This document shows positions 312-38,343 of a stretch of DNA of 64,000 nucleotides, one piece after another. The stretch comes from an uncultured delta proteobacterium (GTDB taxonomy: Bacteria > Myxococcota_A > Polyangia > Palsa-1104): positions 32,001-96,000 of the forward strand of contig CAWAWS010000006.1 in NCBI GenBank assembly GCA_963785725.1, read 5' to 3'. How positions within the stretch are numbered: position 1 is the stretch's first letter; every line of letters starts with the position of its first letter. The notes beneath the pieces were generated by a model. The model was not told the DNA's origin, ran no database searches, and worked only from the letters and a program-made list of their open reading frames with translations. Made by a program: the position numbers and the translations under genes.

Positions 312-2021
312 TTACTTGTTCGTGGCCTTCGGTGCGAGTGACGGCGGCCGCGGTAACAGGAAGTTCACAGCCAGCGCCGCGACGACGACGACGACACAGC
401 CGACGACGTTGTACCAAAGGTAGGTCCAGCTCGTGAGCCAGAACGTCGCGAAGACGCAGACTTGCCCGATGAGCGTGGCGATGAACACCGGCGTGGCGCG
501 GATGAATTTGGCGAAGAAGGCGATGAGGAAGACGCCCAACATCGGGCCGTAAAAGAGCGAGCCCAAGATGTTGACGGCCTGGATGAGGTTGTCGAGCTGC
601 GCGGCGAAAGCGGCGAAGGCGACGGCGAGCAGGCCCCAAAAGACGGTGAACCATTTGGCGGCGTTCAGGTAGGTGCGATCTTCGCGGTTGGGCTGCCACA
701 AGCGGTAGAAGTCGACGACGCTGGTGGAGCCGAGCGAGTTGAGCGCGCTGGCCGTCGCCGACATGGCCGCGCAGACGATGACGGCGAGCAAGAGGCCGAT
801 GAGGCCGCTCGGAAATTGGCTCATGACGAAGCCGATGAAGATGTAATCCTGATCCTTGATGTCGCTGCCGCGCGTCTCCGCGAGCAGCTTCTTGGCGCGC
901 GTGCGCACGGCGTCGGTGGCCGCGCCGCCGGCGCGCAATTCGTCGGCGGCGCTGGCTTTGCGCGCGTCGTCGGCGGTGGCGAGCGCGCTCGCGTAATGGT
1001 CGACCGCGAGCCGGCGCTGCGCGAAGGCCGCATCCCAGTCGGCGTCGAGCCGGCGCGCGTCGGCGGCGCGCGGCCCCGTGTGCGCGCGCTGCCATTCGCC
1101 TTGGTTGAAGAAGAGCGGCGGCTGGTGAAAGAGATAGAACACGAAGAGCAAGACGCCGACGAACAGGATCATGAACTGCATCGGCAGCTTCAAGATGCCG
1201 TTGAACACGAGGCCCAGGCGCGACTCCGTCAGCGACGCGCCGCCGAGATAGCGCTGCACCTGCGACTGATCGGTGCCGAAGTAGGCGAGCGCGACGAAGA
1301 GGCCGCCGGTCATGCCCGACCAGAACGTGTAGCGCCGGTCGAAGCGCCAGGCGTAGTCGACGATCTTCATCTTCCCGAGCGCGCCCGCCAAGTGCACGGC
1401 GTGGTCGAGCGAGAGATCCGCCGGCAATTGCCGGCGAATGAAGAAGAACGCCAGCGCCATGCCGGCGAGCATCACGATCATCTGGAACGTCTGCGTGCGG
1501 CTGACGACGCGCGTGCCGCCGGACACGGTGTACACGATCGTCACCGAGCCGATGACGAGGTTCGTCCACTGCAGCGGCCAGCCGAGCACGGTCGACAGCA
1601 CGATCGCCGGCGCGTAGATCGACACGCCCGCCGCCAAGCTGCGCGAGACGAGGAACAGGATCGCCGTCAATTGCCGCGTCTTGCGATCGAAGCGCTGCTC
1701 CAAGAATTCGTAGGCGGTGTAGACCTTCAAGCGATAGTAGAGCGGCAAGAAGAACGCCGACAGGATCACCATCGCGACCGGCAGGCCGAAGTAGAACTGC
1801 AGAAAGCCCATGCCGTCTTCGAACGCTTGGCCGGGCATCGATAGGAAGGTGATGGCGCTCGCTTGCGTGGCCATGATCGAGAGGCCGATCGTCCACCAGC
1901 GCAGATCGCGGCCGCCGCGCAGGTAGACGTCGCTCGTCTTGGCGCCGCGATCGCGCCAGCTGCCGTAGCCGACGATGGCGGCGATGGTGCCGACGAGCAC
2001 GATCCAGTCGAGTAACTTCAT
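312..2021 (-). CDS. Sodium:solute symporter (SSS) family protein
   Basis: Multi-TM protein with [25 protein letters not shown] and [13 protein letters not shown]. Start placed at MKLLDW (2021), preceded by GGAG. The longer ORF start at 2111 lies inside a repeat unit. Confidence 0.92.
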
Positions 2022-2203
2022 CGAGTCTCCTGCGGAGCTCGATGAGGAGGATGGTCGATCCGCTGGCCCTACGGGCCGGACGCTCACATTCGCTCGCTGG
2101 CGCTCGCTCATCGAGTCTCCTGCGGAGCTCGATGAGGGGATGGTCGATCCGCTGGCCCTACGGGCCGGACGCTCACATTCGCTCGCTGGCGCTCGCTCAT
2201 CGA
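2018..2203. repeat. Tandem duplication of an 89/90-bp intergenic unit bounded by TCGATGA (minus strand)
   Basis: 2019-2108 and 2109-2197 are identical except for one extra base near 2048. Each unit contains the hairpins GGCCC-GTA-GGGCC and TCATCGAGCTCC-GCA-GGAG(A)CTCGATGA. Confidence 0.97.
2108..2200 (-). CDS. Junction mini-[33 protein letters not shown] (30 aa), ATGA-coupled at both ends
   Basis: Its ATG overlaps the upstream TGA (2197-2199) and its TGA overlaps the ATG at 2111. Translation is not demonstrated. Confidence 0.45.
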
Positions 2204-2331
2204 TAGAGCCAGGTGACGGCCGACAAGATCGCGATCAGGACGGCGAGCGTGCCCAAGACGAACGCGTACATGCCGCGCCAGCTGCGAAAGAACGGCGGCT
2301 TGTCGTTCTCGGCCAGTGGCTCAGTGGCCAT
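2197..2331 (-). CDS. Small single-TM protein (44 aa) between the PIG-L and SSS genes
   Basis: [44 protein letters not shown]. It overlaps the PIG-L 3' end. Small membrane partners commonly precede SSS genes. Absent from the ORF track. Confidence 0.8.
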   Translation of the reverse strand: MATEPLAENDKPPFFRSWRGMYAFVLGTLAVLIAILSAVTWLYR

Positions 2332-4855
2332 AGGAAATCAGGTTCGAAAAGAGCCGGTAGGCGCCGGGAATTCCCGCCGGCAGCTGCCGGAAGAAGCCGA
2401 GACCGGTGTAGATGAACGCGCCTTTGCCGTGCTTGGCGATGATGAGCGAGCCCAGCGCCGGCTTCTCGTCCTTGTCGTGCATGCTCAGCGGCGCCACGAA
2501 ATGCGCCGCGTCCCAGCCTTCGGCGAAGTAGAGGCCGCGCTCCTGCACCCAGCCGACCCAGTCGCGCGCGCCGAGCGGATTGGGCGTGTGCAGCACCGGA
2601 TGGTCCTTGGCGACGTCGACGCTCGCGTTCTCGTCGGTGACGCGGGTCTGCGAGATCGTGAACGCATACGGCCCGATGACCGGCACGTCGGACAGCCAAT
2701 TCTTCGTGTTGTACTGCACGAGCAAGGTCCCGCCCGCGGCCACGTAATCCATGAGCCGCTTGTGCACGACCTCCAGGCGCGGATTGACGTTGAACGCGCG
2801 CACGCCGACGACGATGGTCTCGAAGCGCGCCAACGAATCGTGCGCCAGCGCTTCGTCGTCGAGCAGCGTCACGTCGTAGCCGACTTGCCGCAGCGCCGCC
2901 GGCACGTCGTCGCCGGCGCCGGGAATGTAGCCGAGATGCGTGCGCGTCCGATGCAGCTCGAGGCGCACGACCTTGACCTCCGTCGCCGGCAAGATCGTCT
3001 GAATCGGAATGTGCGGATACTCGATGCGCGTCAAGGCATGCAGCGGCTGCGGCGACTGCCCATCGAGCGCGACCGTAAAATGAATGAGCGCGCTCGCGTC
3101 GGTCGTCTTGGCCGGCGGCTTGACGTGAAAGGCCAGCTCGGTCTCGACGCCGCGGCTCGCCAGCTCGACGCGCGCCGAGCCCGGCTCGACGGTCCAGCCC
3201 GCGGGCACGACCGGCGTAATCGTCGCTTTGATCGCGCCCGCCGTCTGCGCGCGCACCGTCAGCTTGAGCGCCTTGCCCTGCGCGTCGGGAAACATGAGCA
3301 GCGGCGCGCGCGGATTGGCCGTCAGCGGCGGCAAGATCTCGAGCGGCCGCACGCGCTCGCCCGCCACCGGATCGGTCCATTTGTAAGCGACCGGCCGCGT
3401 CACCGTAAACGGCACATTGCCGACGGTAAACTGAAACTCGGCCGCGATCGGCGCCGGCTCTTCCGGCCGTCCGATGAGCGTCTGCTCGCTGACCGTCCAA
3501 TGGCCCGGCGACGGCGGCTCGGCCAGCCAATAGGGCGTCGTCAGCCGCTCCGGCGTCTTCGCCGTCGCCGGCTGCGTCCACGGCTGATTCGTCGGCAGCG
3601 GCTTGTCGACGCCGATCGTCCGCTCGCCCAGCCGCACGCTGCGCAACGTCAACGCCGCGTGCGAACGATTGAGCGCGGTCAACGTCAGCTTCACGTCGCC
3701 GCTCGCCGGCGCCGACGACTCGCCCGCGCTGGCGTCGACGTAGAGCCCGGCGCAGGCCGCGATGACGTCGCCGATTTCGGCGCGCTTGGCCGCCTTCCAC
3801 GGCGAATCCGCGAGCGCGTCGAGCGCCGCCGCCGCCTGCGCCAACAGCGGCACGCTCGCCGCCGGATCGCTCGACTTCCACTCGGCGCGCGCCTGCGCCA
3901 GCAGCTTCTGCAGCTTGTCACTGCCGGCGACGCGCGCCCACGTCAGGTTCACGCCGTCGAAGATCGAGCCCGACGTCATCGGCGCGCCGGCCAGCAGCTT
4001 GAAATATTCGTTGGCCGGTCCGCGCTGCGGCGCCGCGCCGAAGCCTTGGCTCTTGTGCATGCTGCGGCTCGTCGCCGCCATCTCGCCGTACGACACGCCC
4101 AGCGACGGGTTGTAGCCGCCGACATCGAGCTTGGCGTAGCTCGATAGATCTTCGCCCGCCGGCACGCCGCCGAAGAAGCCGCGATTCCACACGATGCGCT
4201 TGGCCTGCCACGGCGATACGCCCAGCTTTTGCCACTCGGGGTGATAGCTCTCGTCCGCCGCCAGCTTGAACGCCGCCAGCGCCAGCTGCGCCGACGCGGT
4301 GTGATGGCCGTGCGTGTCGCGACCGTCGGGCGCGAAGCGCGTCACGATGACGTCCGGCTGAAAACGCCGCACCGCCCACACGACGTCGGCCAAGATCGTG
4401 TCGCGATCCCAGATGCTCAGCGTCTCTTCCGGCGTCTTCGAGTAGCCGAAGTCGCGGGCGCGCGAGAACAGCTGCTCGCCGCCGTCGACGCCGCGCGCCG
4501 CCAACAGCTCCTGCGTGCGAATGACGCCGAGCAGCGGCTGCAGCTCACCGCCGATCAAATTCTGCCCGCCTTCACCGCGCGTCAGCGACAAATAGGCCGT
4601 GCGCACCAGCTTGCCGTTGCGCAGCCAGCTCAGCATGCGCGTGTTCTCGTCGTCGGGATGGGCCGCGACGTAGAGCACGTTGCCGACGACGCCGAGCCGC
4701 TCGACGGCGCGCTCGAGCTCGCCCGCGTTCGGCTGCCGGAAGGGCGCGGCCTCGGCGCTCATGCCGATCCCCAAGACCACGACGCAGCAACCGACGAGCG
4801 CGCAGCCCAACGCGCTCCCTCTCGCAAGCAGGGTGGTACCTGACGGAGCGCGCAT
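2321..4855 (-). CDS. Large exported PIG-L/LmbE-family deacetylase with beta-sandwich and C-terminal class I glutamine amidotransferase-like domains
   Basis: Zn motifs AAHPDDE and HGHH, TRGEGGQN, RARDFGYSK; hydrophobic signal segment; C-terminal GYIPGAGD...LMDYVAAGGTLLVQYN. Confidence 0.9.
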   Translation of the reverse strand: MRAPSGTTLLARGSALGCALVGCCVVVLGIGMSAEAAPFRQPNAGELERAVERLGVVGNVLYVAAHPDDENTRMLSWLRNGKLVRTAYLSLTRGEGGQNLIGGELQPLLGVIRTQELLAARGVDGGEQLFSRARDFGYSKTPEETLSIWDRDTILADVVWAVRRFQPDVIVTRFAPDGRDTHGHHTASAQLALAAFKLAADESYHPEWQKLGVSPWQAKRIVWNRGFFGGVPAGEDLSSYAKLDVGGYNPSLGVSYGEMAATSRSMHKSQGFGAAPQRGPANEYFKLLAGAPMTSGSIFDGVNLTWARVAGSDKLQKLLAQARAEWKSSDPAASVPLLAQAAAALDALADSPWKAAKRAEIGDVIAACAGLYVDASAGESSAPASGDVKLTLTALNRSHAALTLRSVRLGERTIGVDKPLPTNQPWTQPATAKTPERLTTPYWLAEPPSPGHWTVSEQTLIGRPEEPAPIAAEFQFTVGNVPFTVTRPVAYKWTDPVAGERVRPLEILPPLTANPRAPLLMFPDAQGKALKLTVRAQTAGAIKATITPVVPAGWTVEPGSARVELASRGVETELAFHVKPPAKTTDASALIHFTVALDGQSPQPLHALTRIEYPHIPIQTILPATEVKVVRLELHRTRTHLGYIPGAGDDVPAALRQVGYDVTLLDDEALAHDSLARFETIVVGVRAFNVNPRLEVVHKRLMDYVAAGGTLLVQYNTKNWLSDVPVIGPYAFTISQTRVTDENASVDVAKDHPVLHTPNPLGARDWVGWVQERGLYFAEGWDAAHFVAPLSMHDKDEKPALGSLIIAKHGKGAFIYTGLGFFRQLPAGIPGAYRLFSNLISYGH

Positions 4856-5142
4856 TCTGGCGTACCTTTCTTAGGCAGTGGCTTAGCGGGTGGCAAAGCG
4901 GAGATGGCCGACACTGATACCCGTCGTATCGCGATGGTCGCTTCAACGCCAGTCGATCTCGCGTTCGATCGAATGGCGCCGAGCGCGCGGTGAGCGCGTC
5001 GACGTGAAACACCGCAGCCGCGTAAAGGGTTGCCACAAAATGATCGTCGCGCGGGCGGAATATCGGATCGGCGGACGCAGTTTGTCGTTCGTGATCAACT
5101 GCGCCATTGGCAAGCGGCAAAGCCGTATTAAATAGACGAGCC

Positions 5143-7851: not shown

Positions 7852-7924
7852 TCGACGAACGGAAGCGCGCGGCCGCTCGCAGCGCGCGCGTGAGGGGCGA
7901 CGCCGCCGCTAAGTCAACGCCTGT

Positions 7925-8785
7925 TTACTTGGACTTCCAGTCGTTCAGCGCCTTCTTGACGTCGTCCTTGCCGCCGTATTTGTCGGCCGGCAGCGCCGAG
8001 CCCAGCTGATCGGCCTTCTGCGCCAGCGGCAGCGCCTGCTTGTAGTTGCCCTTGGCCGCCAACAGCTGCGCCTTGGTCCAATCGTTGTTCCACACTTCAC
8101 CGATGGCGATCGAGCGATCGACGAGCTCGAGGCCGGCGTCGTAATCCTTCTTCTGCTCGAGCATGTAGCGCGCCGCCTGGTTGAACGGCGACCACGCCGT
8201 GTCCTCGGCCGTCTTGACGATCGCCGCCACCTGCGCGTCCGTGCCCAGCTTCACCGGCAACGCGATGCGCACCCGCTCCCATTCGAGCACCAGCGCGACC
8301 GCGTTCTGCACCGCGAAGTCGTCGAACGAGTAGGCGAGCCGCTCCTTGTGCGCGATCGGGATCGGCTTGACGTCGACGCGAACCAGATCCTGGTCCGCCT
8401 TGTAGGCGAACGCGCCCGGCTGCACCGGATCCTTGTTGACGATGAAGGTCCAATTGCCCTGCTTTTGCGGGATGACGAAGATCGAGTAGCTGCCGGCCGG
8501 CACCTTCGTCGTGCCGATGGTGACCTCGCGGCTCACCGTCAGCTTCGTCGACAAGTTGGCGCCGGCGCGCCAGACCTGCCCGTATTGCACGACGTTGCCC
8601 CAGATCTTGCGGCCGTTGACGCGCGGGCTCGAGTAATCGACCGTCAGCTCGGTCAGCCCGACCGTCTGCGACACTTTGGCGAACGGGCTCGCGCGCGGCA
8701 GATCGATCTGCTGCGCCTGCGCCACGCCGTTCATACAGATCGCGCTCAGCGCGACCGCGAATACCGACGACAACAGAGTCTTCAT
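7925..8785 (-). CDS. Exported DUF2911-family protein with C-terminal TPR-like helices
   Basis: Signal peptide followed by PRASP..VSQTVGLT..VDYSSP, WRAGAN and GSYSIF; GAGGAGG RBS. Confidence 0.85.
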   Translation of the reverse strand: MKTLLSSVFAVALSAICMNGVAQAQQIDLPRASPFAKVSQTVGLTELTVDYSSPRVNGRKIWGNVVQYGQVWRAGANLSTKLTVSREVTIGTTKVPAGSYSIFVIPQKQGNWTFIVNKDPVQPGAFAYKADQDLVRVDVKPIPIAHKERLAYSFDDFAVQNAVALVLEWERVRIALPVKLGTDAQVAAIVKTAEDTAWSPFNQAARYMLEQKKDYDAGLELVDRSIAIGEVWNNDWTKAQLLAAKGNYKQALPLAQKADQLGSALPADKYGGKDDVKKALNDWKSK

Positions 8786-17643: not shown

Positions 17644-19607
17644 ATGCGTAGCTCTATATTTTCTTTGCTTGCCGGCCTTCTCATTTTCGCGTCCGGTTGC
17701 AGCAACAAAGCCCATAGCGTCACCGACGGCGGCGCGCCGCCCGAAGCGGCGCCCGGCTGCAACCCCGTCATCGGCGACGACTGCCTGACGCCGTTCCCGT
17801 CGAGCTTCTACGAAGTGGCGGACACGACGACGAAGACCGGCCTACGCGTCAAGATCGGCCCCACCACGCTGCCGCAGCAGTCCGACGGCAACCAGATCCT
17901 GCCCGATCGCATGAACCAGAAGGACGGCTTTTCGCCGTCGATGCCGTTCATCGTCTACTTCAAGGCAGAGCGTCGACCCGATCGAACCTGCCCACCAACG
18001 ACACGCTGGCCGCGTCGGTGACGGCGACGTCGACCGTGCAGGTCATCAAGGCCGACGACGGCGACGCGCGTCCCGGTCATGGCCGAGCTCGACGCCAACG
18101 CGGGCCCGGTCGGCTCGGGCGATCGTCAGGGGCTGCATCGTGCGGCCGATGACGCGGCTTCTGCCGAACACGCGCTACATCATCGCCATCCTCGGGCTCA
18201 AGGACACCACGGGCGCCGCGATCATTCCCGCGCCCTTCAAGGCGCTGCGCGACGGCACGACGCTGTCGCAGTCGCTCATGCCGGTGAAGGCGAATTATGA
18301 CGACATCTTCGCCAAGCTGACCGCGGCCGGCGTCGATCGCACCAACCTGACGGTCGCGTGGGACGTCACGACGGCCAGCGACGAGACGGCGACCTCGCAT
18401 TTGACCGGCATGGTGGCCAACGCCTTCGCGCTCGAGGCCGCCGGCTCGCTCGGCTACACCATCACGACGCCGGGCACGCCGACGACGACGGGCGACCTCT
18501 ACCAGGAGATCCTCGCCACGGTAAAGACGCCGCAATACCTGCTCGACAACACCGGCAAGTCGAACCTCGGCTTCGGCGCCGACGGTCAGCCGGTGCAGAA
18601 CGGCACCGTCGACACGCCGATCGTCATCCACATTCCGCAGTGCGTGACCGATCCCAACACGAAGTTCCCGATTCCGACGGTCGTCTTCGGTCACGGCCTC
18701 TTCGGCAGCGCGCTGGAGACGCTGCAGTCGCCCGTCTTCGAGGCCATGTCGAACACGCGCTGCGCCATCTACATCGGCACCGACTGGATCGGCTTGTCGT
18801 CGAGCGACATCACCAACGTCATCAACATCGTCTCCGGCGATCTCAACAACGTCTACGTCATCACCGATCGCCTGCAGCAGGCGCACGTCAACATCAACAC
18901 CATGACGCGCGTCTTCGCCAACGAGATCGTCAAAGACCCGATCATGCAGGTCAACGGCGTCCCGATCACCGACGGCAAGGAGATCTACTACTTCGGCGTC
19001 TCGATGGGCGGCATCGAGGGCGTCACCTTCATGGGCATCAACCCCGACATCACGCGCGGCGTGCTCAACGTGCCCGGCGCCGAGTGGTCGCTGCTCATGT
19101 ATCGCTCGACCGACTTCGCGATGTTGAAGGTGCTGTTGAGCGCGACGTTCTCCGATTCGCTCGACGCGCAGGTGGCCATCGCCGCGACGCAGCCGGAGTG
19201 GGATTACACCGATCCGGCGACCTTCGCGCCGCACGTCATCGCCGCGCCGCTGCCGGGCGTGCCGGCCAAGCAGTCTGCTCCTGCAGATGTCGATCGGCGA
19301 CGCCGAGGTGACCAACCTGTCGACGGAGCTGCTGGCGCGCACCATCGGCGTCTCCGGCTTCGACCTCGAGTTCCCGGTCTACGGCGTGCCGGTGGCGGCG
19401 GCGCCGCTCGATTCGGCGTACACGCAGTGGGATTCGCATCCGTCGACGCTGCCGCCGACGACCGACACGGCGCTGGAGAAGGACAACGGCGCGCACGAGG
19501 CCGTCTTCAACGCGCCGCTCGCGCAGCAGCAGATCAACGCCTTCATCACGCCCACGGGCCAGGCGACGTCGGTCTGCACCGGCGGCATCTGCAACATCTC
19601 GCAATGA
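17644..19607 (+). CDS. Lipoprotein with an alpha/beta-hydrolase (lipase/esterase-like) domain; several frameshifts (about 17965-18135 and 19272)
   Basis: Lipobox ASGC, CLTPFPS and DGFSP N-terminal motifs, VFGHGLFG, nucleophile elbow GVSMGG, C-terminal Asp (GDAEV) and His (GAHE). Confidence 0.75.
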
Positions 19608-19651
19608 GCGAGCGTGAGCGAGCGAACGTGAGCGGAGCATCGCCCCAATGA
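19604..19651 (+). CDS. Junction mini-ORF MSERERANVSGASPQ (15 aa), ATGA-coupled at both ends; dispersed copy of the 2.1-kb repeat core
   Basis: The first 31 nt match the unit at 2200 with 3 mismatches; bounded by the direct repeat CAATGAG. Confidence 0.45.
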   Translation: MSERERANVSGASPQ

Positions 19652-20070
19652 GTGACGACGTTGCGCTGCTGGCCACGATCAATCAGCTGGACGGCTGGGC
19701 CCGCGAGATGGGCGTCGTCGTCACCGTGGCCAGCGCCGACGAGGTCGTGGCCTACTTCGACGTCGCGCCCAAGCATCTGCAGGCCTACGGCATCGTTCAC
19801 GGCGGCGTGCACTGCGGCGTCGTCGAGACGGTGACGTCGATCGGCGCGGCGATGGTGGCGATGGCGCGCGGGCAAAAAGTCGTCGGCCTCGAGAACAGCA
19901 CGTCGTTCATTCGCGGCGTGCGGTCGGGGCGGCTGACGGCGACGTCGAAGCCGGTGACGCGCGGCCGCAAGACGCAAGTGTGGGAAGCGTGGATTCGCGA
20001 CGAGGCCGGGCAGCTCGTCGCCGAAGGCAAAGTGCGCCTGCTCTGCCTCGACGAGCAGCAGGTCTTGTAG
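19648..20070 (+). CDS. PaaI-family (hotdog) thioesterase
   Basis: HLQAYGIVHGG..CGVVET, VGLENSTSFIR, GRKTQVWE. Confidence 0.92.
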   Translation: MSDDVALLATINQLDGWAREMGVVVTVASADEVVAYFDVAPKHLQAYGIVHGGVHCGVVETVTSIGAAMVAMARGQKVVGLENSTSFIRGVRSGRLTATSKPVTRGRKTQVWEAWIRDEAGQLVAEGKVRLLCLDEQQVL

Positions 20071-26651: not shown

Positions 26652-26652
26652 C

Positions 26653-27312: not shown

Positions 27313-27872
27313 TTTTGCACGCATGCCCGAGAGCCACAAGTCAAAATGCCTTCCAATCCATTCTTTAAATAATCGATTTCCTACGCTTCAATACACCGCC
27401 GTACGTCTGCCAATGTTGCGAAAGTATGACCAATTACAGGCGTTTCGCGTTCGCCGTCGAGGCTGTATTCGGTGTGAGACGATATCCGACTGTAAGTGCC
27501 GCGCATGATTCCGGCGAGGCCAGGGCGTGCGTCCGGCGGCGTCAGCGTCTGCATCGTGCCCGGCTGTAGAGCAACAAGCGTTCCACGCCCGCGGCGGGCG
27601 GGCGGACGGGTGGCAGCGGGCGGAAGCCCACGCCGGACGCGGAGATCGAGCGCCGGACGGAGCGGCAGCTCAGGCGAAGCCATCGCAAGTGGCGCACCAA
27701 CGCCCACCCGGCCTGGGGCTGCGGGTCTCGGGGCATTTGCTCGATGAGTCGAGGCTCCGGGTGTCCACCTGCAGTTGACAGCTCGGCCTGTGTAAGCGCG
27801 ATTGCGTTCGGCTGCGCAGCTGCTGGGACTACGCGGCGCCGAATGTTCGCGAACGAACGTCAGCGTCGGTCG

Positions 27873-29027: not shown

Positions 29028-29064
29028 GGCTCTCCGAGTGTAGTCGATGATGGTGCGGCGCGCG

Positions 29065-32000
29065 TCAGCCGTTGAGCGGCACGGCCGCCGGCGGCACGTG
29101 CTGCTTCTTGGAGCGGAAGCGATCGAGGAACAGATACGTCACCGGCGTCGTGAACAGCGTCAGCATCTGCGACAGCATGAGGCCGCCGACGATGGCCACG
29201 CCGAGCGGTTGGCGCATCTCGGCGCCCGTGCCCGTGCCGAGCGCGAGCGGCAGGCCGCCGAGTAGCGCGGCCATCGTCGTCATCAGAATCGGCCGGAAAC
29301 GCAAGAGGCAGGCCTGATAGATCGACTCCTCGGGCGCCGCGCCTTCTCGTTCCGCCTCGAGCGCGAAGTCAATCATCATGATCGCGTTCTTCTTGACGAT
29401 GCCGATGAGCAAAATGATTCCGACGATGCCGATGATCGACAGATCCATGTTGAACAGGAGCAAGGCCAAGAGCGCGCCGACGCCGGCCGAGGGCAACGTC
29501 GACAGAATCGTGATCGGGTGAATGTAGCTCTCGTAGAGCATGCCGAGCACGATGTAGACGGTGATGAGCGCGGCGATGATCAGCCACTTCTCCGACGACA
29601 GCGAGTCTTTGTAGGCCTGGGCCGTGCCGGTGAAGTCGCCGCGCACGCTCGCCGGCAAGCCCATCTGGCTCTCGGCCTCGTGAATCGCCGCCACCGCTTG
29701 TGACAGCGAGACGCCCGGCGCGGCGTTGAACGACAACGTCACGCCCGGAAACTGCCCTTGGTGGTTGATCGACAGCGGCGTCACCGACGGCGTGATCGAC
29801 GCGATCGCGCTCAGCGGCACCTGCGTTCCCGCCGGCGTCTTCACGTACAGCGCCGCCAGCGCCTCCGGTCCGCGCGCCAGCTCCGGCTTCATCTCGAGCA
29901 CGACGCGATACTGATTGACGGCCGTGAACGACGTCGCCACTTGGCGCTGCCCGAAGGCGTCGTAGATCGTGTTGTCGACGTCGCGCATGCTGATGCCGAG
30001 CCGCGCGGCGCTGTCGCGGTCGACGTTGACGTCGAGCTCGAGCCCGGCGGTCTGCTGATCGGTGTTCACGTCCTGCAGCAGCTTGATCTTGCGCATCGAC
30101 GCCAGCATCTTCGGCGCCCACTTCAAGAGCTCGTCCAGGTCGGCGTCTTGCAGCGTGTACTGATACTGCGAGCGCGCCAGACGACCGCCCAAGCGCACGT
30201 CCTGCACCGACTGCAGGAACAGCTGGATGCCTTGCACCTTGGCCAGCTTGGGACGCAGCCGGTTGATGATCTCGTCGGCGGTCGCTTTACGCTGCGGCTT
30301 CTGCTTGAGCGCGATGAACATCGTGCCCGTGTTGCCGGTGCCGCCGCCGCCCGAGCCGATGAACGACACGACGTTCTCGACGTCGGGATCCTGCTCGACG
30401 ATGTGCTCGACCGCTTGCTGTCGCGCCTTCATCGCCGGGAACGAAATGTCCTGCGGCGCGTCGGTAAAGCCGGTCAGCATGCCCGTGTCCTGCTGCGGAA
30501 ACAGGCCGAAGTTCATGAAGAACTTGAGCAGGATGACGACCAGCGCCACCGTCGCCACGGTCACGAAGCCGATGAGCACGCGATGGCGCAGCACGAAGCG
30601 CAGCATGCGACCGTAGCCGTTCTGCAGCGCCACGAAGCCGGACTCGAGCGTGCGATCCATCCAGCCGCGCGGGCCGTGATGTTGGTGCGCGAGCATCTTG
30701 GCGCACATCGTCGGCGTCAACGTCAGCGACACGAGCGCGGACACGCCGATGGCGATCGACAAGGTGACGGCGAACTCGCGGAACAGTCGACCGATGATGC
30801 CGCCCATCAGCAAGATCGGGATGAAGACGGCGAGCAGCGAGATCGTGATGCTGACGATGGTGAAGCCGATCTGCTTGGCGCCCAAGATCGCCGCTTCGAG
30901 CGGCTTCTTGCCCTCTTCGATGAAGCGCTGCACGTTCTCGGTCACGACGATGGCGTCATCGACGACGAAGCCGGTCGAGATCGTCAGCGCCATCAGCGAC
31001 AAGTTGTCGAGCGAATAGCCGAGCAGATACATGACGGCGAAGGTGGCGACCAGCGACAGCGGCACCGCCACCGACGGAATCACCGTCGCCCACACGCTGC
31101 GCAAGAAGAGGAAGACGACGAGCACGACCAGCGCCACCGAGATGACCAGCGACATCTCGACGTCGACGACCGAGGCGCGAATCGTCTGCGAGCGATCGAG
31201 CGCCACCGAGACGTCGATGGCCGGCGAGATCTCGTGCGCCAGCTCGGGCACGATCTTTTTGACGCGCTCGATGACGTCGATGATGTTGGCGCCCGGCTGC
31301 CGGCGAATGATGAGCATGACCGTGCGATCGCCGTTTTCCCAGCCGGCGACGCGCTCGTTCTCGACCGAGTCGACGACGCGCGACACGTCCGACAGCTTCA
31401 CGGCCGCGCCGTTCTGATAGCTGACGACGACGTCCTTCCAATCGTTGGCGTTGAGCAGCTGATCGTTGGCGGTGATCGGCTGCGCTTTGTCGGCGCCGCC
31501 GAAGCCGCCTTTGGGCGAGTTGGACGTCAAGACGCCGAGCGCGGTGCGAATGTCCTCGAGGCTCGATGTTGGAGCCGGCGAGCGCCGCCGGATCGGCCTG
31601 CACGCGCACCGCCGGCTGCTGTCCGCCGCCGACGAACACCTGACCGACGCCGGTGACCTGCGAGATCTTCTGCGCGAAGATGGTGTTGCCGATGTCGAAG
31701 ATCTGCGACAGCGGCACCGTCTTCGACTTCATGGCGTAGATCAAGATCGGCGAGTCGGCCGGGTTGACCTTGCGATAGTTCGGGCGCGTCGGCAGGTTCG
31801 GCGGCAAGTCGCCGCCGGCGGCGTTGATGGCCGCCTGCACGTCGCGCGCGGCCGAGTCGACGTCGCGGTCGAGATCGAACTGCAGCGTGATCGACGTGTT
31901 GCCGAGCGTCGACGCCGACGTCATCTCGACGAGGCCGGCGATGCGGCCGAAGCGCCGCTCGAGCGGCGTCGCCACCGATGACGCCATCGTCTGCGGCGAG

Positions 32001-32161
32001 GCGCCGGGCAGCGCGGCCGAGATGTTGATGGTCGGGAAGTCGACGCGCGGCAGCGGCGCCACCGGCAGCTGCGTAAACGCCGCGCCGCCGGCGATCATGA
32101 GCGCGAAGGCGAGCAGAAACGTCGCCACCGGCCGCCGAATGAACGGCTCTGAGATGCTCAT
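29065..32161 (-). CDS. mdtC: RND efflux permease, MdtC-like (+1 frameshift near 31565)
   Basis: MSISEPFIRRPVAT, YRKVNPADSP, GFVVDDAIV, GIVKKNAIMMIDFAL, RFRPILMTT. Confidence 0.9.
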
Positions 32162-32187
32162 CGCGGCACCTTCGACGTGCCGCTCAC
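32158..32187 (-). CDS. Junction mini-ORF (GTG)SGTSKVPR, 9 aa, spanning a hairpin between mdtB and mdtC
   Basis: GTGA overlap with the mdtB stop, ATGA overlap with the mdtC start, inverted repeat GCGGCAC-N7-GTGCCGC. Confidence 0.35.
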   Translation of the reverse strand: MSGTSKVPR

Positions 32188-35100
32188 GGCGTCACGACAG
32201 GCGCAGCCGGCTCGCCTTCGGGCGTCGTGCCGCTCGATGACGACGACTCGGTGGCGCGCTTCCCCTTTTTGCCGAGGCGCGTGAGCTTGTCCATGTACAA
32301 ATAGATGACCGGCGTCGTGTACAGCGTCAGGATCTGCGACAACAACAGGCCGCCGACGATGGTGATGCCGAGCGGACGGCGCAGCTCCGCGCCCGTGCCG
32401 GTGCCGAGCGCGAGCGGGACGGCGCCGAGGAGCGCGGCCATCGTCGTCATCATGATCGGCCGGAAACGCAAGAGGCAGGCCTGAAAGATCGACTTCTCGG
32501 GCGACATCTTCTCGACGCGCTCGGCCTCCAACGCGAAGTCGATCATCATGATGGCGTTCTTCTTGACGATGCCGACGAGCAGGACGACGCCGATGAGCGC
32601 GATGACGTCGAACTCCGCGTGGCAGACGATGAGCGCGAGCAGCGCGCCGACGCCGGCCGACGGCAAGGTCGACAAGATCGTCAGCGGGTGAATGTAGCTC
32701 TCGTACAAGACGCCGAGCACGATGTAGACCGTCAACAGCGCCGCCAACAGCAGCACCGGCTCCGACGCCAGCGAATCGCGGAACGCCGAGGCCGCGCCCT
32801 GGAAGTCGCCGTGAATGCCCGGCGGCTCGTCGATCTCGAGCATCGCCTGGTTGATGGCGTCGACGGCTTCGCCGAGCGAGATGCCGTTGTTGGTGTTGAA
32901 CGACAGCGTCACCGACGGAAATTGCCCTTGATGGCTGAGCTGCAGCGCGGTCGCCTTGTTCTCGTAGTGCGCGAACGTCGACAGCGGCACGGCGTTGCCC
33001 GTCGTCGAGGTGACGTAGATCTTGTCGAGCGCGTCGGGCGACTGCTGATACTCGGGCTTGACCTCGAGAATGACGCGATAAAGGTTCAGCTGCGTGAAGA
33101 TCGTCGAGACGATGCGCTGCCCGAACGCGTCATACAGCGTGTCGTCGATCGCCTGCGGGCTGACGCCGAGCCGCGACGCCGTGTCGCGATCGATCGTCAG
33201 CGCCAGCGACAGGCCGCCCATCTGCTGATCGGACGCGACGTCGACGAGCGCCGGCAGCGTCTTCAGCTTCGCCAGGATCTTGGGCGCCCACTGGTTGAGC
33301 TCGTCGGGATCGGCGTCTTCGATCGTGTATTGGTACTGCGTTCGCGACAGCCGATTGTCCATCTGTAAGTCCTGCACCGGCTGCATGTAGAGCGTGATGC
33401 CTTGCACCGACTGCACCTTCTGCTGCAGCCGCTTGATGATCGTCGTCGCGTCGTCGGACCGGTTCTCGCGGGGCTTGAGCGCGATCGAGAAGCGGCCCGA
33501 GTTCGTCGTCACGTTCGTGCCGTCGGCGCCGATGAACGACGCCACCGTCGCCACGTCCGGGTCGGCCATGATGATCTGGGCCAGCGCCTGCTGCCGCTCC
33601 ATCATGCGGCTGAAGCAGACGTCGGGCGCCGCCTCGGACACGCCGGTGATGAGGCCGGTGTCCTCGATGGGGAAGAATCCTTTGGGCACGATGTAAGCGA
33701 GCAGGCCGGTGAAGGCGACGGTCGCCAAGGTCGCGATGAGCGTCGTGCGGCGATGGCGCAGGCACCAGCCGAGCGTGCGCTCGTAGAAGCGCGTCGTGGC
33801 GTCGAAGCCGCCTTCGAAGGCGCGCGCGAACGCGCCCGGATGCTCCTCGGCGTGCGGCTTGAGCAGCCAGCCGGCCATCATCGCCGTCAGCGTGAGCGAC
33901 AGGATCGCCGAGACGATGATGGCGATCGACAAGGTGACGGCGAACTCGCGGAACAGTCGACCGATGAGGCCGCCCATGAAGAGCAGCGGAATCAACACGG
34001 CGACGAGCGAGATCGTGAGCGACATGATGGTGAAGCCGATCTGCCCGGCGCCTTTGAGCGCGGCCTCGAACGGCCGCTCGCCCTCTTCGACATAGCGCGC
34101 GATGTTCTCGACCATGACGATGGCGTCGTCGACCACGAAGCCGGTCGAGATGGTCAGCGCCATGAGCGACAGGTTGTTCAGCGAGAAGCCGCACAGGTGC
34201 ATGATGCCGAAGGTCGCGATGAGCGACAGCGGCACGGCGACGCCCGGGATGATCGTGGCGCGCCAGCTGCGCAAGAAGACGTAGATGACGCCGACGACCA
34301 GGAACACCGTCAGCACCAGCGTGAACTGCACGTCCTTGACCGACGCGCGCACGGTCTCGGTGCGATCGGTCAGGATCTGCACGTCGATTCCTTGCGGCAT
34401 CGAGGCCGACAAGGCCGGCAACAGCTTCTTGATGCCGTCGGTGACGGCGATGATGTTGGCGCCCGGCTGGCGCTGGATGTTGATGATGACCGCGCGCTTC
34501 AGCGTGCGCGCCGGTGTCGCCGGCGTCGCTTCGGCCGAGCCGGCCCAGCCGGCGAGCTGCTGATTCTCGACGCCGTCGACCGCATTGGCGATGTCCGACA
34601 GCCGAATCGGCGCGCCGTTCTTGTAAGCGATGACGAGCGTCTTGAAGCTGTTGGCCTTGTCGAGCTGATCGTTCGTGGCCAGCGTGTAGTCCTGCCGCGG
34701 CCCGTCGACGTTGCCTTTGGGCGCGTTGACGTTGGCGGCGGCGAGCGCGAGCCGCACGTCCTCGAGCGCCAACCCCGTGCCCGCGAGCGCCAGCGGATCG
34801 ACCTGCACGCGCACCGCCGGCTTCTGCCCGCCGTTGATCGACACGAGGCCGACGCCCGAGACTTGCGCGATCTTCTGCGCCAGCACCGAGTCCGCGTAGT
34901 CGTCGACCTGCGACAAGGGCAGCGTGTCCGAGCTCACCGCCAAGGTCAGCACCGGCGTATCGGCCGGGTTCGACTTCGAGTAGGTCGGCGGCGCCGGCAG
35001 CGTCGGCGGCAGCAGGTTCGACGCGGCGTTGATGGCCGCCTGCACGTCCTGCTCGGCGGCGTCGATGTTGCGATCGAGCGAGAACTGCAGCGTCACCTGC

Positions 35101-35366
35101 GACGACGCGAAGCTCGAGATCGACGTCATCTGCGTCAACGACGGCATCTGCCCGAACTGACGCTCGAGCGGCGTCGTCACCGCCGAAGCCATCGTCTCGG
35201 GCGACGCGCCCGGCAAGGTCGTGGCGACGACGATGGTCGGGTAGTCGACCTGCGGCAGCGCCGCGACCGGCAGCTGCTGGTAGCCGACCATACCGGCCAG
35301 CGCCACGCCGATCATGAGCAGCGTGGTGGCGACCGGGCGCCGAATGAAAGGCGCCGAGATACTCAT
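32184..35366 (-). CDS. mdtB: RND efflux permease, MdtB-like
   Basis: 1060 aa; ALPQVDYPTI, ERQFGQMP, YSKSNPADTP, GFVVDDAIV. Confidence 0.93.
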   Translation of the reverse strand: MSISAPFIRRPVATTLLMIGVALAGMVGYQQLPVAALPQVDYPTIVVATTLPGASPETMASAVTTPLERQFGQMPSLTQMTSISSFASSQVTLQFSLDRNIDAAEQDVQAAINAASNLLPPTLPAPPTYSKSNPADTPVLTLAVSSDTLPLSQVDDYADSVLAQKIAQVSGVGLVSINGGQKPAVRVQVDPLALAGTGLALEDVRLALAAANVNAPKGNVDGPRQDYTLATNDQLDKANSFKTLVIAYKNGAPIRLSDIANAVDGVENQQLAGWAGSAEATPATPARTLKRAVIINIQRQPGANIIAVTDGIKKLLPALSASMPQGIDVQILTDRTETVRASVKDVQFTLVLTVFLVVGVIYVFLRSWRATIIPGVAVPLSLIATFGIMHLCGFSLNNLSLMALTISTGFVVDDAIVMVENIARYVEEGERPFEAALKGAGQIGFTIMSLTISLVAVLIPLLFMGGLIGRLFREFAVTLSIAIIVSAILSLTLTAMMAGWLLKPHAEEHPGAFARAFEGGFDATTRFYERTLGWCLRHRRTTLIATLATVAFTGLLAYIVPKGFFPIEDTGLITGVSEAAPDVCFSRMMERQQALAQIIMADPDVATVASFIGADGTNVTTNSGRFSIALKPRENRSDDATTIIKRLQQKVQSVQGITLYMQPVQDLQMDNRLSRTQYQYTIEDADPDELNQWAPKILAKLKTLPALVDVASDQQMGGLSLALTIDRDTASRLGVSPQAIDDTLYDAFGQRIVSTIFTQLNLYRVILEVKPEYQQSPDALDKIYVTSTTGNAVPLSTFAHYENKATALQLSHQGQFPSVTLSFNTNNGISLGEAVDAINQAMLEIDEPPGIHGDFQGAASAFRDSLASEPVLLLAALLTVYIVLGVLYESYIHPLTILSTLPSAGVGALLALIVCHAEFDVIALIGVVLLVGIVKKNAIMMIDFALEAERVEKMSPEKSIFQACLLRFRPIMMTTMAALLGAVPLALGTGTGAELRRPLGITIVGGLLLSQILTLYTTPVIYLYMDKLTRLGKKGKRATESSSSSGTTPEGEPAAPVVTP

Positions 35367-35416
35367 CGACTCACTCCTGCGACTCCCGACAAATTCCGTC
35401 GATCAGCGACGCTCAC
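35363..35416 (-). CDS. Junction mini-ORF (GTG)SVADRRNLSGVAGVSR, 17 aa, between mdtA and mdtB
   Basis: GTGA overlap with the mdtA stop, ATGA overlap with the mdtB start, no internal stop. Confidence 0.35.
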   Translation of the reverse strand: MSVADRRNLSGVAGVSR

Positions 35417-36678
35417 TGGCCGCCTCCGCCGGGCGCGGTCGCCGGCGCCACGCCATCGGCCGGCTTCTTGTGCCCTCTGCCATCATGCACCTTGCCGTCG
35501 GGCTTGGTCGGCGTGTCACCCATGGCCGCCGTCGCCGCGTGCGCGTTGACGGTGACGCCCGGACGCAGCTGATTCTGCCCCTCGGTCACGATCTGCTCGC
35601 CCGGCGCGATGCCCTTGTCGATGACCGCCACATCCGCCGTCGTCAACGCCACCGTCACGTTGCGCTGCTCGGCCTTGCCGTCTTGCACGACGTAGACGAA
35701 CGTGCCGTTCGGTCCGCGCTGCACCGCCGCCGGCGAAATCACGATCGCGTTCGGCCGCGTCTCGAGCAAGAGGCGCGCCTTGACGAACTGATTGGGCCAC
35801 AGCAAATGCTGCGGATTCGGCACTTGGCACTTGAGCTTCAGCGTCGCCGTCGCCTGGTTGATCTGATTGTCGACGACCGCCAGCTTGCCCACGCCGAGCC
35901 GCGTCGCTCCGTCGCGGCTCCACGCCTCGACGGTGACCTCGCCCTTGCGCATCGCCGTCATGACGCGATCGAGATCATCCTCGGGCAGCGTCACGAACAC
36001 CGCCGCCGGATCGAGCTGCGTCAGGACGACGAGCCCGTTGACGTCGGTGGCGTGCACGAGGTTGCCGGCGTCGACCTGACGCACGCCGACGATGCCGTCG
36101 AGCGGCGCGCGCACCGCCGCGTAATCGAGGTTGAGCTTGGCGCTCTCGATCGCCGCCTTGTCCGTCGTCACCGCGCCTTCCGACTGGCCGACCAGCGACG
36201 CCTGATCGTCGACCTGCTGCTGCGCGATCAATTTCTGCTGCACGAGCGCGCGATAACGCTCCAAGTTCAGCTTCGTGTCGGCCAGCGACGCCGCGTCTTT
36301 GGCCAGCGCGCCCTCCGCCTGGTGCAGCTGCACCGTATATGGCCGCGGATCGATCTGCGCCAGCATCTCGCCCTTTTTGACCGTCTGTCCCTCTTTGAAG
36401 AACACCTTGTCGAGGCGGCCGTCGATCTGCGAGTGCACGATCACCTGCTGCCACGCCGAGACGCTGCCCAGGCCCTCGAGCCACAGCGGCACGTTCTGCG
36501 TCGTCGCCGGCGCGATCGTGACCGACACCGCGCGCGGCGCCTTGGCTTTGTCGGCCTCGGCCTTGGCCTTGGCGGCGTTCCCCAAGTGTCGATAGGTGGC
36601 GAAGGCGGCGATGCAGACGGCCGCGATGACGATGTACACCCAGGCCTTGCTGGATGATTTTGACGAGCTGGTCTCCAT
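35413..36678 (-). CDS. mdtA: RND periplasmic adaptor, MdtA-like
   Basis: N-terminal TM, FKEGQTVKKG..LAQIDPRPY, RAPLDGIVG.RQVDAGN, LWPNQFV; GAGGAG RBS. Confidence 0.93.
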   Translation of the reverse strand: METSSSKSSSKAWVYIVIAAVCIAAFATYRHLGNAAKAKAEADKAKAPRAVSVTIAPATTQNVPLWLEGLGSVSAWQQVIVHSQIDGRLDKVFFKEGQTVKKGEMLAQIDPRPYTVQLHQAEGALAKDAASLADTKLNLERYRALVQQKLIAQQQVDDQASLVGQSEGAVTTDKAAIESAKLNLDYAAVRAPLDGIVGVRQVDAGNLVHATDVNGLVVLTQLDPAAVFVTLPEDDLDRVMTAMRKGEVTVEAWSRDGATRLGVGKLAVVDNQINQATATLKLKCQVPNPQHLLWPNQFVKARLLLETRPNAIVISPAAVQRGPNGTFVYVVQDGKAEQRNVTVALTTADVAVIDKGIAPGEQIVTEGQNQLRPGVTVNAHAATAAMGDTPTKPDGKVHDGRGHKKPADGVAPATAPGGGGQ

Positions 36679-36704
36679 TTTCTCCTCGGACTGCCGCCTG
36701 ACAC

Positions 36705-36720
36705 AGCAATCGCCGCGCCA
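36705..36720 (-). promoter_or_regulatory. Sigma54 (-24/-12) promoter for mdtABC
   Basis: TGGCGCG-GCGA-TTGCT matches TGGCACG-N4-TTGCW with exact spacing, 26 nt upstream of the mdtA ATG. Confidence 0.8.
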
Positions 36721-36760
36721 CGGTAAGTGCTACCGCGACGTGGGTTTGCGCCGGTTCCGG

Positions 36761-36797
36761 CTGTATTCAAGCGATACAGGTGTCCTGATTGCCAACA
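36761..36797. promoter_or_regulatory. Candidate enhancer: two tandem TGT-N11-ACA boxes
   Basis: CTGTATTCAAGCGATACAG (36761-36779) and TGTCCTGATTGCCAACA (36781-36797), upstream of the sigma54 site. Confidence 0.55.
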
Positions 36798-36868
36798 ATC
36801 GCAAGCCCCTTTGATGGCGCGCGACGGCGAAATGTTGCCGGTCCACCTCTTGCTTGGCAAGCGCCGAC

Positions 36869-38254
36869 GTGGCAATCACTCCATTCATACGCCACCGCTT
36901 GGTCACCATCGCCTTTCTGGGCCTCGTTACGTCGGCCCTGGCGCTGTTCGCGCTCTATCGCGCGGTCAGCACGACGGTCGCCCTGCGCGTGCAGCGCGCC
37001 CAAGATCTCGTGGGCAACGAAGTCGACCGGCTCGCCAAGCTGCCGCCGACGACCGACTCCTTGGCGGCGCCGCCGTCGAGCACGTACGTCGGTCTGCGCG
37101 GCGGCTGGATGCAGTCACCGGCCGGCGCCGCGTCCGAGCCCGGCCTGCCGCCGGCGTGGGTCCCGTCGGTCGCTGACGTCGTCGGCCGCGCCGAAGCCAC
37201 GCACACCCGCGTCGAAGGCGTCGTCACCCGCTACGAGACCGGCCAGCTCGTCACCGCCGCCGCGCCGGCACCCGGCGGCGTCGCCTGGGCCGCTTACGTC
37301 GTCCTCCCGTTTTCGTCGCTCGAGACCTGGAAATGGGTCATCACTGCACTGGCCTTGTCCGCTGCCTTATTGGTGTTCACCGCCATCGCCACGACGCTGT
37401 CCTTCCGTCGCTCCGCCGGCGAGTTGAACGAGACCTTGACGCTCTTGGGCGGCGATCTGACGACGAAAGTGCCGCAGCCGAAGGTGCTCGAGCTCACCGG
37501 CATCGCCGACGGGATTCGCTCGTTGGCGGCGCAGCTGTTGACGTCGCGCGAGGCGACCGATCGCCTCGGGCGCGAGCTGGCGCAGCAGGAGCGGCTGGCG
37601 GCGCTGGGACGGGTCGCGGCCGGTGTCGCGCATGAAGTGCGCAACCCGCTGGCATCGATCAAGCTGCGGCTCGATCTGACGACCTCGGCGCACGCCTTGC
37701 CGGAGTCGGCCAAGAAGTCGATCGCCGCGGCCGCGGACGAGATCGCGCGCCTCGACCGGCTGGTGAGCGATCTGCTGCTCGTGGCCGGCAACAAGATCGG
37801 GCCGCGGCGCGCGCTCGACGTGGCCGAGCTCGTGCGCATGCGCGCCGAAGCGCTGGCGCCGTGGGCCGCGACGCGCCAAGTGAAGCTGCACGCCGTCGGA
37901 CAAGGCCGCGCCGACGCCGATCCCGAGTCGGTGGCGCGCGCGCTCGACAATTTGATGCGCAACGCCGTCGAAGCGTCGCCGGCCGACGCGCCGGTCGAGG
38001 TCGTCGTGCGGGCGCGCGAAGGTCGCGTCGACGTCGTCGTCGCCGATCGGGGCGCAGGCGTGGCGGAGTCGCGCGTGGGCGAGCTGTTCGAGCCGTTCTT
38101 CACGACGAAAGCCGAGGGCACCGGGCTCGGCCTGGCCATCTCGCGCGCCATCGCGCGCGCTCACGGAGGCGACTTGACCTACGCCCGCGGCGACGAAGTC
38201 ACGTCGTTCTGCCTGTCGCTGCCCGAGCGCGCCCCGCGCGCCGAGGCCGCATGA
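36869..38254 (+). CDS. Membrane sensor histidine kinase
   Basis: Two TM helices, AHEVRNPL, NLMRNAVEA, DRGAG, FEPFFTTK, GTGLGL. Start approximate. Confidence 0.93.
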   Translation: MAITPFIRHRLVTIAFLGLVTSALALFALYRAVSTTVALRVQRAQDLVGNEVDRLAKLPPTTDSLAAPPSSTYVGLRGGWMQSPAGAASEPGLPPAWVPSVADVVGRAEATHTRVEGVVTRYETGQLVTAAAPAPGGVAWAAYVVLPFSSLETWKWVITALALSAALLVFTAIATTLSFRRSAGELNETLTLLGGDLTTKVPQPKVLELTGIADGIRSLAAQLLTSREATDRLGRELAQQERLAALGRVAAGVAHEVRNPLASIKLRLDLTTSAHALPESAKKSIAAAADEIARLDRLVSDLLLVAGNKIGPRRALDVAELVRMRAEALAPWAATRQVKLHAVGQGRADADPESVARALDNLMRNAVEASPADAPVEVVVRAREGRVDVVVADRGAGVAESRVGELFEPFFTTKAEGTGLGLAISRAIARAHGGDLTYARGDEVTSFCLSLPERAPRAEAA

Positions 38255-38343
38255 ACCCGCGCGCCGCGCGCCGAGGCCGCATGAACCCGCGCATTGCGCG
38301 CCGAGGCCGCATGATCCGCGCACTGCGCGCCGAGGGAATATGA
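38228..38343 (+). repeat. Tandem 29-30-bp repeats copying the kinase 3' end; they encode a 30-aa ATGA-coupled mini-ORF (38251-38343)
   Basis: GCGCGCCGAGGCCGCATGA three times plus a variant ending GAGGGAATATGA; reads MNPRAARRGRMNPRIARRGRMIRALRAEGI. Confidence 0.9.

Follow-up and report, generated by a model that had tools for sequence, protein, structure and literature searches.

Five operon junctions with stop-free mini-ORFs

The DNA analysed here (the window) is a stretch of 64,000 nucleotides from a genome of the class Polyangia (Myxococcota), positions 32001-96000 of contig C6 (G000:C6:32001-96000). This genome, G000, has 8,894,787 bases in 47 contigs, a G+C content of 67.9% and a completeness of 88%. 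Its relatives are labelled G001 onward. At five places in the window the gap between two co-oriented genes is a single stop-free mini open reading frame (mini-ORF), whose start overlaps the upstream stop codon and whose stop overlaps the next start codon. The overlaps have the form RTGA, where R is A or G. We describe each junction by d, the distance from the 5' RTG to the 3' RTG (start to start). We propose that an interspersed repeat of 74-98 nt, inserted exactly at RTGA overlaps and start codons, accounts for at least two of the five junctions, and that its stop-free 3n+2 mini-ORF is likely translated, passing ribosomes to the downstream gene. We put the probability of this reading at roughly 75%.

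The junctions (J1 to J5) and the genes around them, named by Pfam, are:

2200-2108, minus strand: J1 mini-ORF, 30 codons; its ATG (2200-2198) overlaps the TGA (2199-2197) of a 44-codon ORF and its own TGA (2110-2108) overlaps the ATG at 2111-2109
2112..2200, minus strand: J1 unit 1, a full family copy of 89 nt (nhmmer E 2.4e-19), whose mini-ORF stops on the ATG of unit 2
2022..2111, minus strand: J1 unit 2, a full family copy of 90 nt (one extra base), found by a profile match; d = 90
19604..19651, plus strand: J2 mini-ORF, a truncated family copy; 15 codons, d = 44, ATGA at both ends
32158..32187, minus strand: J3 mini-ORF in a 26-nt insert between two RND genes; 9 codons, GTGA then ATGA
35363..35416, minus strand: J4 mini-ORF in a 50-nt insert between the HlyD-type and RND genes; 17 codons, GTGA then ATGA
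38228..38343, plus strand: J5 array, a 30-nt unit repeated 3.6 times that includes the kinase/regulator ATGA overlap; relay ORF 38251-38343, 30 codons, ATGA at both ends
2197..2331, minus strand: 44-codon ORF upstream of J1; in the relatives' loci a small ORF has the same position upstream of the symporter gene
312..2021, minus strand: sodium:solute symporter (SSF) gene, downstream of J1
19648..20070, plus strand: 4HBT thioesterase gene, downstream of J2; the upstream neighbour is an unnamed gene
32184..35366, minus strand: RND transporter gene (ACR_tran), between J4 and J3
35413..36678, minus strand: HlyD-type membrane fusion gene, upstream of J4
36854..38254, plus strand: histidine kinase gene, upstream of J5
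38340..39707, plus strand: sigma-54-dependent response regulator gene, downstream of J5

From J1 to J5 the start-to-start distances are 89, 44, 26, 50 and 89. The original prediction, made from the letters of the window alone, had described these five mini-ORFs with their positions, lengths and overlaps; our reading of the sequence and the ORF table agree with that description throughout.

A dispersed repeat family

J1 and J2 have the motif GAGCGAGCGAAYGTGAGCG in common, which occurs three times in the window against an expectation of 0.04. A profile built from the matches in the genome (nhmmer) finds 46 copies at 38 loci in G000. A typical copy begins with RTGAGCGAGCG, extends over 74-98 nt and is followed by RTGAGC. 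Six of the 38 loci hold two or three copies in tandem. The flanking genes are functionally unrelated.

Outside G000, BLAST finds the family in seven of 30 related genomes, namely in all four of the same genus and in three from other genera of the same family, and does not find it in 16 genomes of two sister families. A covariance model matches four of 141 genomes at the level of the class (G000 itself, G003, G032 and G139); two of these belong to other families, and G032 alone has ten matches. Public records that contain the exact core are titled Polyangia bacterium. Between non-orthologous copies of different species the first 57 nt at the 5' end are at least 90% alike.

Copies also differ in their second hairpin, which exists in a longer and a shorter form. 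In G000 the longer form is found in 23 copies and the shorter in 7, whereas in G002 all ten copies have the shorter form. This difference in subfamily use between genomes fits a spread after the species diverged. At one orthologous junction (C12:16095-16178 in G000 and L032:1460-1557 in G004) the two copies have different second-hairpin forms, which suggests either repeated insertion at one site or the replacement of one copy by another.

Three further copies in G000 (C16:457304-457392, C26:162375-162460 and C37:63421-63458) apparently lie right before response-regulator genes, as the J5 array does. This was judged by eye from the first codons, and among these regulators the one at J5 was checked with Pfam.

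A Y1 transposase of the IS200/IS605 or RAYT type (PF01797) has no match in the 88% of the genome that is covered, and the control search matched six named genomes. Mobilisation of this type is for that reason less likely. A degenerate pattern of the core gave no match among viral contigs, so that carriage by phages is unsupported. The element has no terminal inverted repeats like those of miniature inverted-repeat transposable elements: by eye in alignment A1, its 5' end (GCGAGCG...) has no inverted match at its 3' end (...GGTGCnCCn), and the inverted repeats that it has are the internal hairpins.

The five junctions have different origins

The original prediction treated the five cases as one system. 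This did not hold: at least two are copies of the dispersed family, J4 is a possible remnant, J3 has no significant match and J5 is a local tandem duplication.

J1 is an array of two full copies, which Tandem Repeats Finder reports as an 89-nt period repeated 2.1 times at 2018-2203. The mini-ORF of unit 1 stops on the ATG of unit 2. The second unit had been predicted to lead into the symporter gene, and it does: its length of 90 nt sets its ATG (2111) in the reading frame of the symporter ATG (2021). The step from unit 2 to the symporter is hence an in-frame extension or fusion of 30 codons and not a relay. No promoter-like or terminator-like site was found at J1.

J2 retains no more than the first 32 nt of the element (profile positions 2-33; E 4.8e-07 in a search of the window). 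A similar stretch precedes the start of a thioesterase gene in G002 (L069). There the preceding 44 nt, by eye, open with GTGAGCG and contain GATCGACGG and the palindrome CCATGGGCCCATGAGC; the stretch resembles a copy that has decayed in another way and shares the 44-nt spacing of J2. The gene upstream of J2 (18050-19607, plus strand) has a coding signal (G+C at third codon positions, GC3, above 0.9) that switches frame near 19250, which points to a frameshift, a pseudogene or an assembly error. Its first frame happens to stay open through the mini-ORF to 19651.

J3 carries a GGCAC...GTGCC hairpin and AAGGTG right before the ATG. This order of hairpin, AAGGTG and ATGAGC is that of the third module of the family, and the fold of J3 has z = -2.0. 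J3 thus resembles the 3' module of the family, but its match to the profile is not significant (E = 11). Judged from its N-terminal sequence, the gene after J3 looks like a second RND-type gene. It occupies 29065-32161 on the minus strand as two overlapping ORFs in different frames (30956-32161 and 29065-31530), and this split suggests a frameshift within 30956-31530.

For J4 the profile match covers positions 26-96 and spans the mini-ORF from end to end, with E = 0.27. From this alignment J4 is possibly a decayed, internally deleted copy. J5 does not match the family profile. Tandem Repeats Finder gives a 30-nt period repeated 3.6 times at 38228-38335, and the final unit has 29 nt, which brings the last TGA into frame. 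J5 is a local tandem amplification, outside the family, of a 30-nt piece that holds the ATGA overlap.

Elsewhere in the window two weak profile matches, at 27840-27871 and 55427-55469, lie away from gene junctions and were treated as chance. The GC-rich arrays at 46571-46786, with repeat periods of 21 nt and 39 nt and Tandem Repeats Finder scores of up to 169, have no relation to the junction family.

The element inserts at stop/start overlaps

If the repeat is an insertion, then some orthologous junctions should be empty, and the original prediction had asked for such a comparison. Plain RTGA overlaps are found in the relatives at J1, J3, J4 and J5. Among 13 relatives the junction before the symporter gene is a direct NTGA overlap (N is any base) in 11, a TAA with a following ATG in one and a 17-nt relay in the last. 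The orthologues of J3 have a direct RTGA overlap at five loci and a TAG with a spacer at one. At J4 four relatives have a direct GTGA and G004 has a 17-nt relay; at J5 a direct GTGA is present in all four relatives. Since the orthologous junctions are mostly plain RTGA overlaps, we conclude that DNA was inserted at the overlap.

The reverse comparison starts from 21 syntenic sites that are filled in relatives. In G000 eleven of these sites are empty RTGA overlaps, four are filled, two hold short relays that do not belong to the family (d = 11 and 23), three lack both insert and overlap, and one has another insert. Copy number varies too: one syntenic site has two copies in G005 and one copy in G000. 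At C7:361517-362014 of G000, the site of a family copy in G001 (L010), we observed instead a 496-nt gap of other tandem repeats, with units such as GGCGCGGGGTTCGCG.

The locus L039 allows us to place the insertion. The sequence there is GTGAcc when empty; when filled, the element, which ends in ATGA, stands between GTGA and cc. Hence the insertion occurred immediately behind RTGA or inside it. On either side of the element there is a TGA or RTGA, yet at L039 the 3' copy is ATGA and the empty site is GTGA. The 3' end may therefore be a target-site duplication or a possible element-borne end. A long target-site duplication is not the rule, since C39:156634 alone repeats 15 nt of its upstream flank at the 3' end. 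Neither is the third hairpin copied from the target, because at L044 its 3' arm differs from the sequence upstream of the empty site.

Among the plain direct RTGA overlaps of the whole genome (n = 675) the next two bases are GC in 163 cases (24%); after the 3' RTGA of the elements a G follows in 48 of 64 copies. RTGAGC may thus be a preferred target, or the sequence may be needed for pairing with the GCTCAY arm (Y is C or T) of the third hairpin.

We also counted how often the insertion forms a complete chain into a coding-like gene, using 38 loci of G000 and 45 loci taken from relatives and a strict coding test on the neighbours. In a complete chain an upstream coding-like gene or a bare ribosome-binding site meets RTGA, and the RTG frame has its first stop in a TGA overlapping the start codon of a coding-like gene. 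This is the case at 27 of the 38 loci (22 with a coding upstream gene and 5 at the starts of first genes) and at 30 of the 45 (21 and 9).

Length is constrained to 3n+2

For the frame test the copies were anchored by profile positions and not by frame, which gave 64 copies, 30 from G000 and 34 from relatives. The distance d is 3n+2 in 56 of them (26 of 30 and 30 of 34). The lengths form a ladder of 74, 77, 80, 83, 86, 89, 92, 95 and 98 nt, with the exceptions 87, 88 and 90. Counted by copies the probability of this agreement is p = 4e-19, a value that overstates the case as the copies are related; counted by distinct length classes, 9 of 12 are 3n+2 (p = 0.004). The RTG frame is free of stops in 60 of 64 copies (29 of 30 in G000 and 31 of 34 in relatives). 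The frame of the upstream stop is never open, and the third frame lacks stops in just 13 of the 30 and 18 of the 34 copies.

Several kinds of change in length conform to the same rule. The second hairpins of the two subfamilies differ by 2 nt, and the difference is offset elsewhere in the unit so that d stays 3n+2. Two-unit arrays with off-frame internal spacing (87 + 86 and 78 + 74 nt) have totals of 3n+2. Length variants and decayed remnants are 3n+2 as well, with d = 11, 17, 23, 26, 44, 50, 65 and 74-98. Only six anchored copies, those with d = 0 mod 3 and one of them decayed, could run in frame into the next gene.

The original prediction had held that stop/start overlaps receive inserted or duplicated DNA, which is retained only where the overlap is regenerated in frame. 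The empty RTGA sites together with the 3n+2 variants support this.

Short relays are enriched outside the family

The five junctions had been selected by eye, and open frames and ATGA starts are frequent in a genome as rich in G+C as this one. The pattern could thus be due to chance. By our own calculation a 30-codon frame is open about half the time at this G+C content. To obtain a genome-wide control we called gene ends by requiring GC3 >= 0.8 and more G+C at first than at second codon positions (GC1 > GC2). The caller returned 6,408 ends, and for each end three possible paths were traced.

Outside the family, short relays of 2-20 codons that end in RTGA on a coding-like gene follow 66 of 531 RTGA gene ends. 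Control ends without a start codon also give relay-like paths, in 102 of 2824 cases. The enrichment at RTGA ends is about 3.5-fold (odds ratio 3.8; Fisher p = 4e-14). A test of relay length across the genome, also part of the original prediction, points the same way: at RTGA ends d is 2 mod 3 in 66 cases and 1 mod 3 in 17, as opposed to 102 and 86 at the other ends (p = 7e-5). By eye some of the non-family relays resemble remnants of the family and others ordinary Shine-Dalgarno (SD) spacers.

The genome-wide control rejects chance, and the repeat family, the empty sites and the frame rule of 56 in 64 copies also speak against it. We give chance next to no credence. The frame agreement that was predicted to exceed chance does so both within the family and in the non-family excess at RTGA ends.

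Three hairpins and no conserved peptide

The RNA of the element is predicted to fold into three hairpins (RNAalifold, 30 copies). The first includes the 5' RTGA, the second is GGCCC-GTA-GGGCC, and the 3' arm of the third bears an AGGTG/GGAG motif and the downstream RTGAGC. In 85 copies aligned to the model, 92.5% of cells are paired, compared to 81.5% in shuffles. Changes on both sides of a pair occur in 223 cells, compared to 60.1 in shuffles; none of 500 shuffles reaches 223, and slid controls give at most 44. The alignment was fitted to the structure, which biases these counts in its favour. In the third hairpin compensatory changes are seen at each of the 13 pairs. Covariation extends to the downstream start codon, whose first base changes together with its partner (CG 28, UA 21, UG 8), and to the 5' start base (GC 43, AU 22, unpaired 17). 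G-U pairs are consistent with the sense strand only: one pair is UG in 72 of the 85 sequences, and a second is GU in 18. In 57 of the 64 copies an SD-like motif is located 4-16 nt upstream of the 3' RTG, and the predicted fold pairs the start codon in 59 of them. The mean predicted energy of the third hairpin is -20.2 kcal/mol, compared to -12.2 kcal/mol for shuffles.

These data could mean that the element acts as an RNA or DNA structure, for example to stabilise mRNA as a REP would, to mark a processing site or to bind a protein, and that its open frame is incidental. The three covarying hairpins and the sense-strand G-U pairs are what such an element would have, and conservation tracks nucleotides and structure rather than codons. 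However, a structure does not explain why lengths change in steps of 3, why the 2-nt difference between hairpins is offset to hold 3n+2, or why stops and starts overlap at both ends. An Rfam search of 1900-2400 in the window, at E up to 1, returned no match, and a known RNA family was thus rejected. We regard a purely structural role as improbable.

Alternatively, the mini-ORFs might encode a functional small peptide. The first ten codons, M/V-S-E-R-x-R-A-N-V-S, are common to most copies. Past codon 10, however, the subfamilies read in different frames (VRPVGPADR in one and EARRARGS in the other), and the tails differ in every copy. Variability by codon position is flat over the first 31 positions (0.435, 0.43 and 0.471), and variation falls on hairpin loops and paired bases instead of third codon positions. 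At J2, J3 and J4 the peptides encoded by the remnants are unrelated. A functional peptide is therefore very hard to credit. As judged from these sequences the peptide is not conserved and the mini-ORFs of the family are not peptide genes.

A proposed relay that would do little harm to operons

We propose the following mechanism for the relay. A ribosome that has translated the upstream gene would halt at the TGA within the first hairpin. It would restart at the overlapping RTG and read 25-32 codons. Reading would melt the third hairpin, which otherwise pairs the SD-like AGGTG/GGAG motif and the downstream RTG. The ribosome would then stop at the TGA that overlaps the downstream RTG and restart at that RTG.

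An insert that is built as a coupled relay would do little harm to the operon and hence persist. Later insertions and deletions would survive only if the frame is kept, which would account for the 3-nt length ladder and for the short in-frame remnants. J4 may be such a frame-kept remnant, and J3 could be one as well, though it has no significant family match. J5 would be a separate event of the same kind, in which slippage amplified a 30-nt piece with its ATGA overlap.

The relay function, that is translation of the mini-ORF and reinitiation, is a likely one deduced from the conservation of frame. Several observations weigh against this reading. Eleven of 38 loci in G000 and 15 of 45 in relatives are not complete relays: they are truncated, have a premature stop, run in frame into the next gene or fail the strict coding test. 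J1 unit 2 and three copies whose ends read ACGAGC or ACGAAC in place of RTGAGC all have d = 90 and no stop/start overlap at the anchored position; among the three, one continues in frame into the next ATG and another meets an ATGA relay 8 nt on. The match of J4 to the family profile is weak and that of J3 is not significant. The folding z-scores of whole units are modest (-1.5 to -3.8). Furthermore, the GC3-based caller of gene ends is crude, the alignment behind the pair counts was fitted to the structure, and binomial p-values overstate the evidence because the copies share descent.

A related explanation overlaps with ours and differs in the benefit to the host. The element may be kept because it is useful: the third hairpin would hide the downstream ribosome-binding site and start, so that only relayed ribosomes make the downstream protein, and this would give the operon strict coupling or a tunable ratio. 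In favour of a benefit, compensatory changes maintain the hairpin that pairs the start codon, this hairpin is predicted to be more stable than its shuffles, and the 5' 57 nt stay alike between non-orthologous copies across species. Yet relatives manage without the element at most orthologous junctions, copies degenerate into short remnants and the neighbouring genes are functionally unrelated. We consider a maintained benefit possible but rather unlikely.

Similarly tentative is the idea that the element is a mobile cassette that homes to start codons. A sequence-specific machinery might recognise the conserved 5' module and place the element at RTGA, and the three-hairpin RNA might make translation of the invaded gene depend wholly on relayed ribosomes. 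The element would then be a portable coupling module, independent of the MIRUs found in another phylum (see below), that could be co-opted to set protein ratios. We doubt that this full version applies.

Relation to known repeats

Mycobacterial interspersed repetitive units (MIRUs) are built in a similar way. They are mobile, insert at start codons and carry an ORF that is coupled at -4 nt (PMC12548453). A second account gives units of 40-100 bp and 40-50 copies and describes tetranucleotide direct repeats, filled as well as empty sites, and ORFs that overlap the adjacent genes (PMC3184786). The passages of these sources that deal with MIRUs agree with our family in unit size and tens of copies (here 74-98 nt and 46 copies at 38 loci), in a sense orientation at start codons or within operons (27 of 38 loci and 30 of 45 in relatives) and in an internal ORF joined to its neighbours by 4-nt overlaps (d = 3n+2 in 56 of 64). 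They agree as well in having empty and filled sites with tetranucleotide direct repeats (RTGA on both sides and 11 empty RTGA overlaps among 21 syntenic sites; at J1, 12 of 13 relatives lack the insert, 11 with a direct NTGA and one with TAA-ATG, and one has the 17-nt relay) and in variable tandem copy number (two or three copies at 6 of 38 loci). MIRUs are also often found between kinase and regulator genes.

The likeness seen here is one of design, and the host belongs to Polyangia (Myxococcota) and not to Mycobacterium. Furthermore, our family has three hairpins supported by covariation, the last of which pairs the downstream start codon; the MIRU passages of the cited sources contain no comparable analysis. 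By analogy, then, the family works like a MIRU and is filed with MIRUs by design, not as a member of the mycobacterial family. On the same comparison the relay-repeat design is not new: it is the one reported for mycobacterial MIRUs.

The first MIRU to be described lies between senX3 and regX3. The array in this intercistronic region, of the kind used as variable-number tandem repeats (MIRU-VNTR), resembles J5, which likewise is a short-unit tandem array between a kinase and a regulator gene with a coupled mini-ORF. The unit of J5, however, is a local duplication of the junction itself and does not match the family profile.

Other repeats share single features with the family. REP, BIME and REPIN sequences with their RAYTs are short, GC-rich, hairpin-forming repeats inside operons. 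In contrast to our family, REPs lie outside reading frames and have no coupled ORF, and the G000 sequence, 88% complete, has no match to PF01797. Rickettsia palindromic elements survive by keeping a reading frame open (PMC10969869). As described in the part of that source that concerns them, they insert inside genes as in-frame fusions, whereas our family inserts between genes with a stop/start overlap at each end. Finally, synthetic bicistronic designs place a short leader ORF before the gene of interest, its stop overlapping the gene's start, to bring in ribosomes and overcome local RNA structure (PMC12548453). Those designs, in the account given there, are engineered, whereas the family is a natural dispersed repeat. 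Our literature search on MIRU-like repeats, on interspersed repeats of myxobacteria and Myxococcota and on start-codon coupling found no description of the family.

The family suggests that the MIRU design is more than a peculiarity of mycobacteria: a small repeat placed on start codons can carry a throw-away frame that preserves translational coupling. Its length variants, remnants and empty and filled sites provide dozens of natural replicates in which selection at operon junctions keeps the frame and not the peptide. They also form a natural set of junction variants for the study of termination-reinitiation and of start-codon sequestration. For annotation the family is a warning, as such gaps are neither non-coding spacers nor real small-protein genes.

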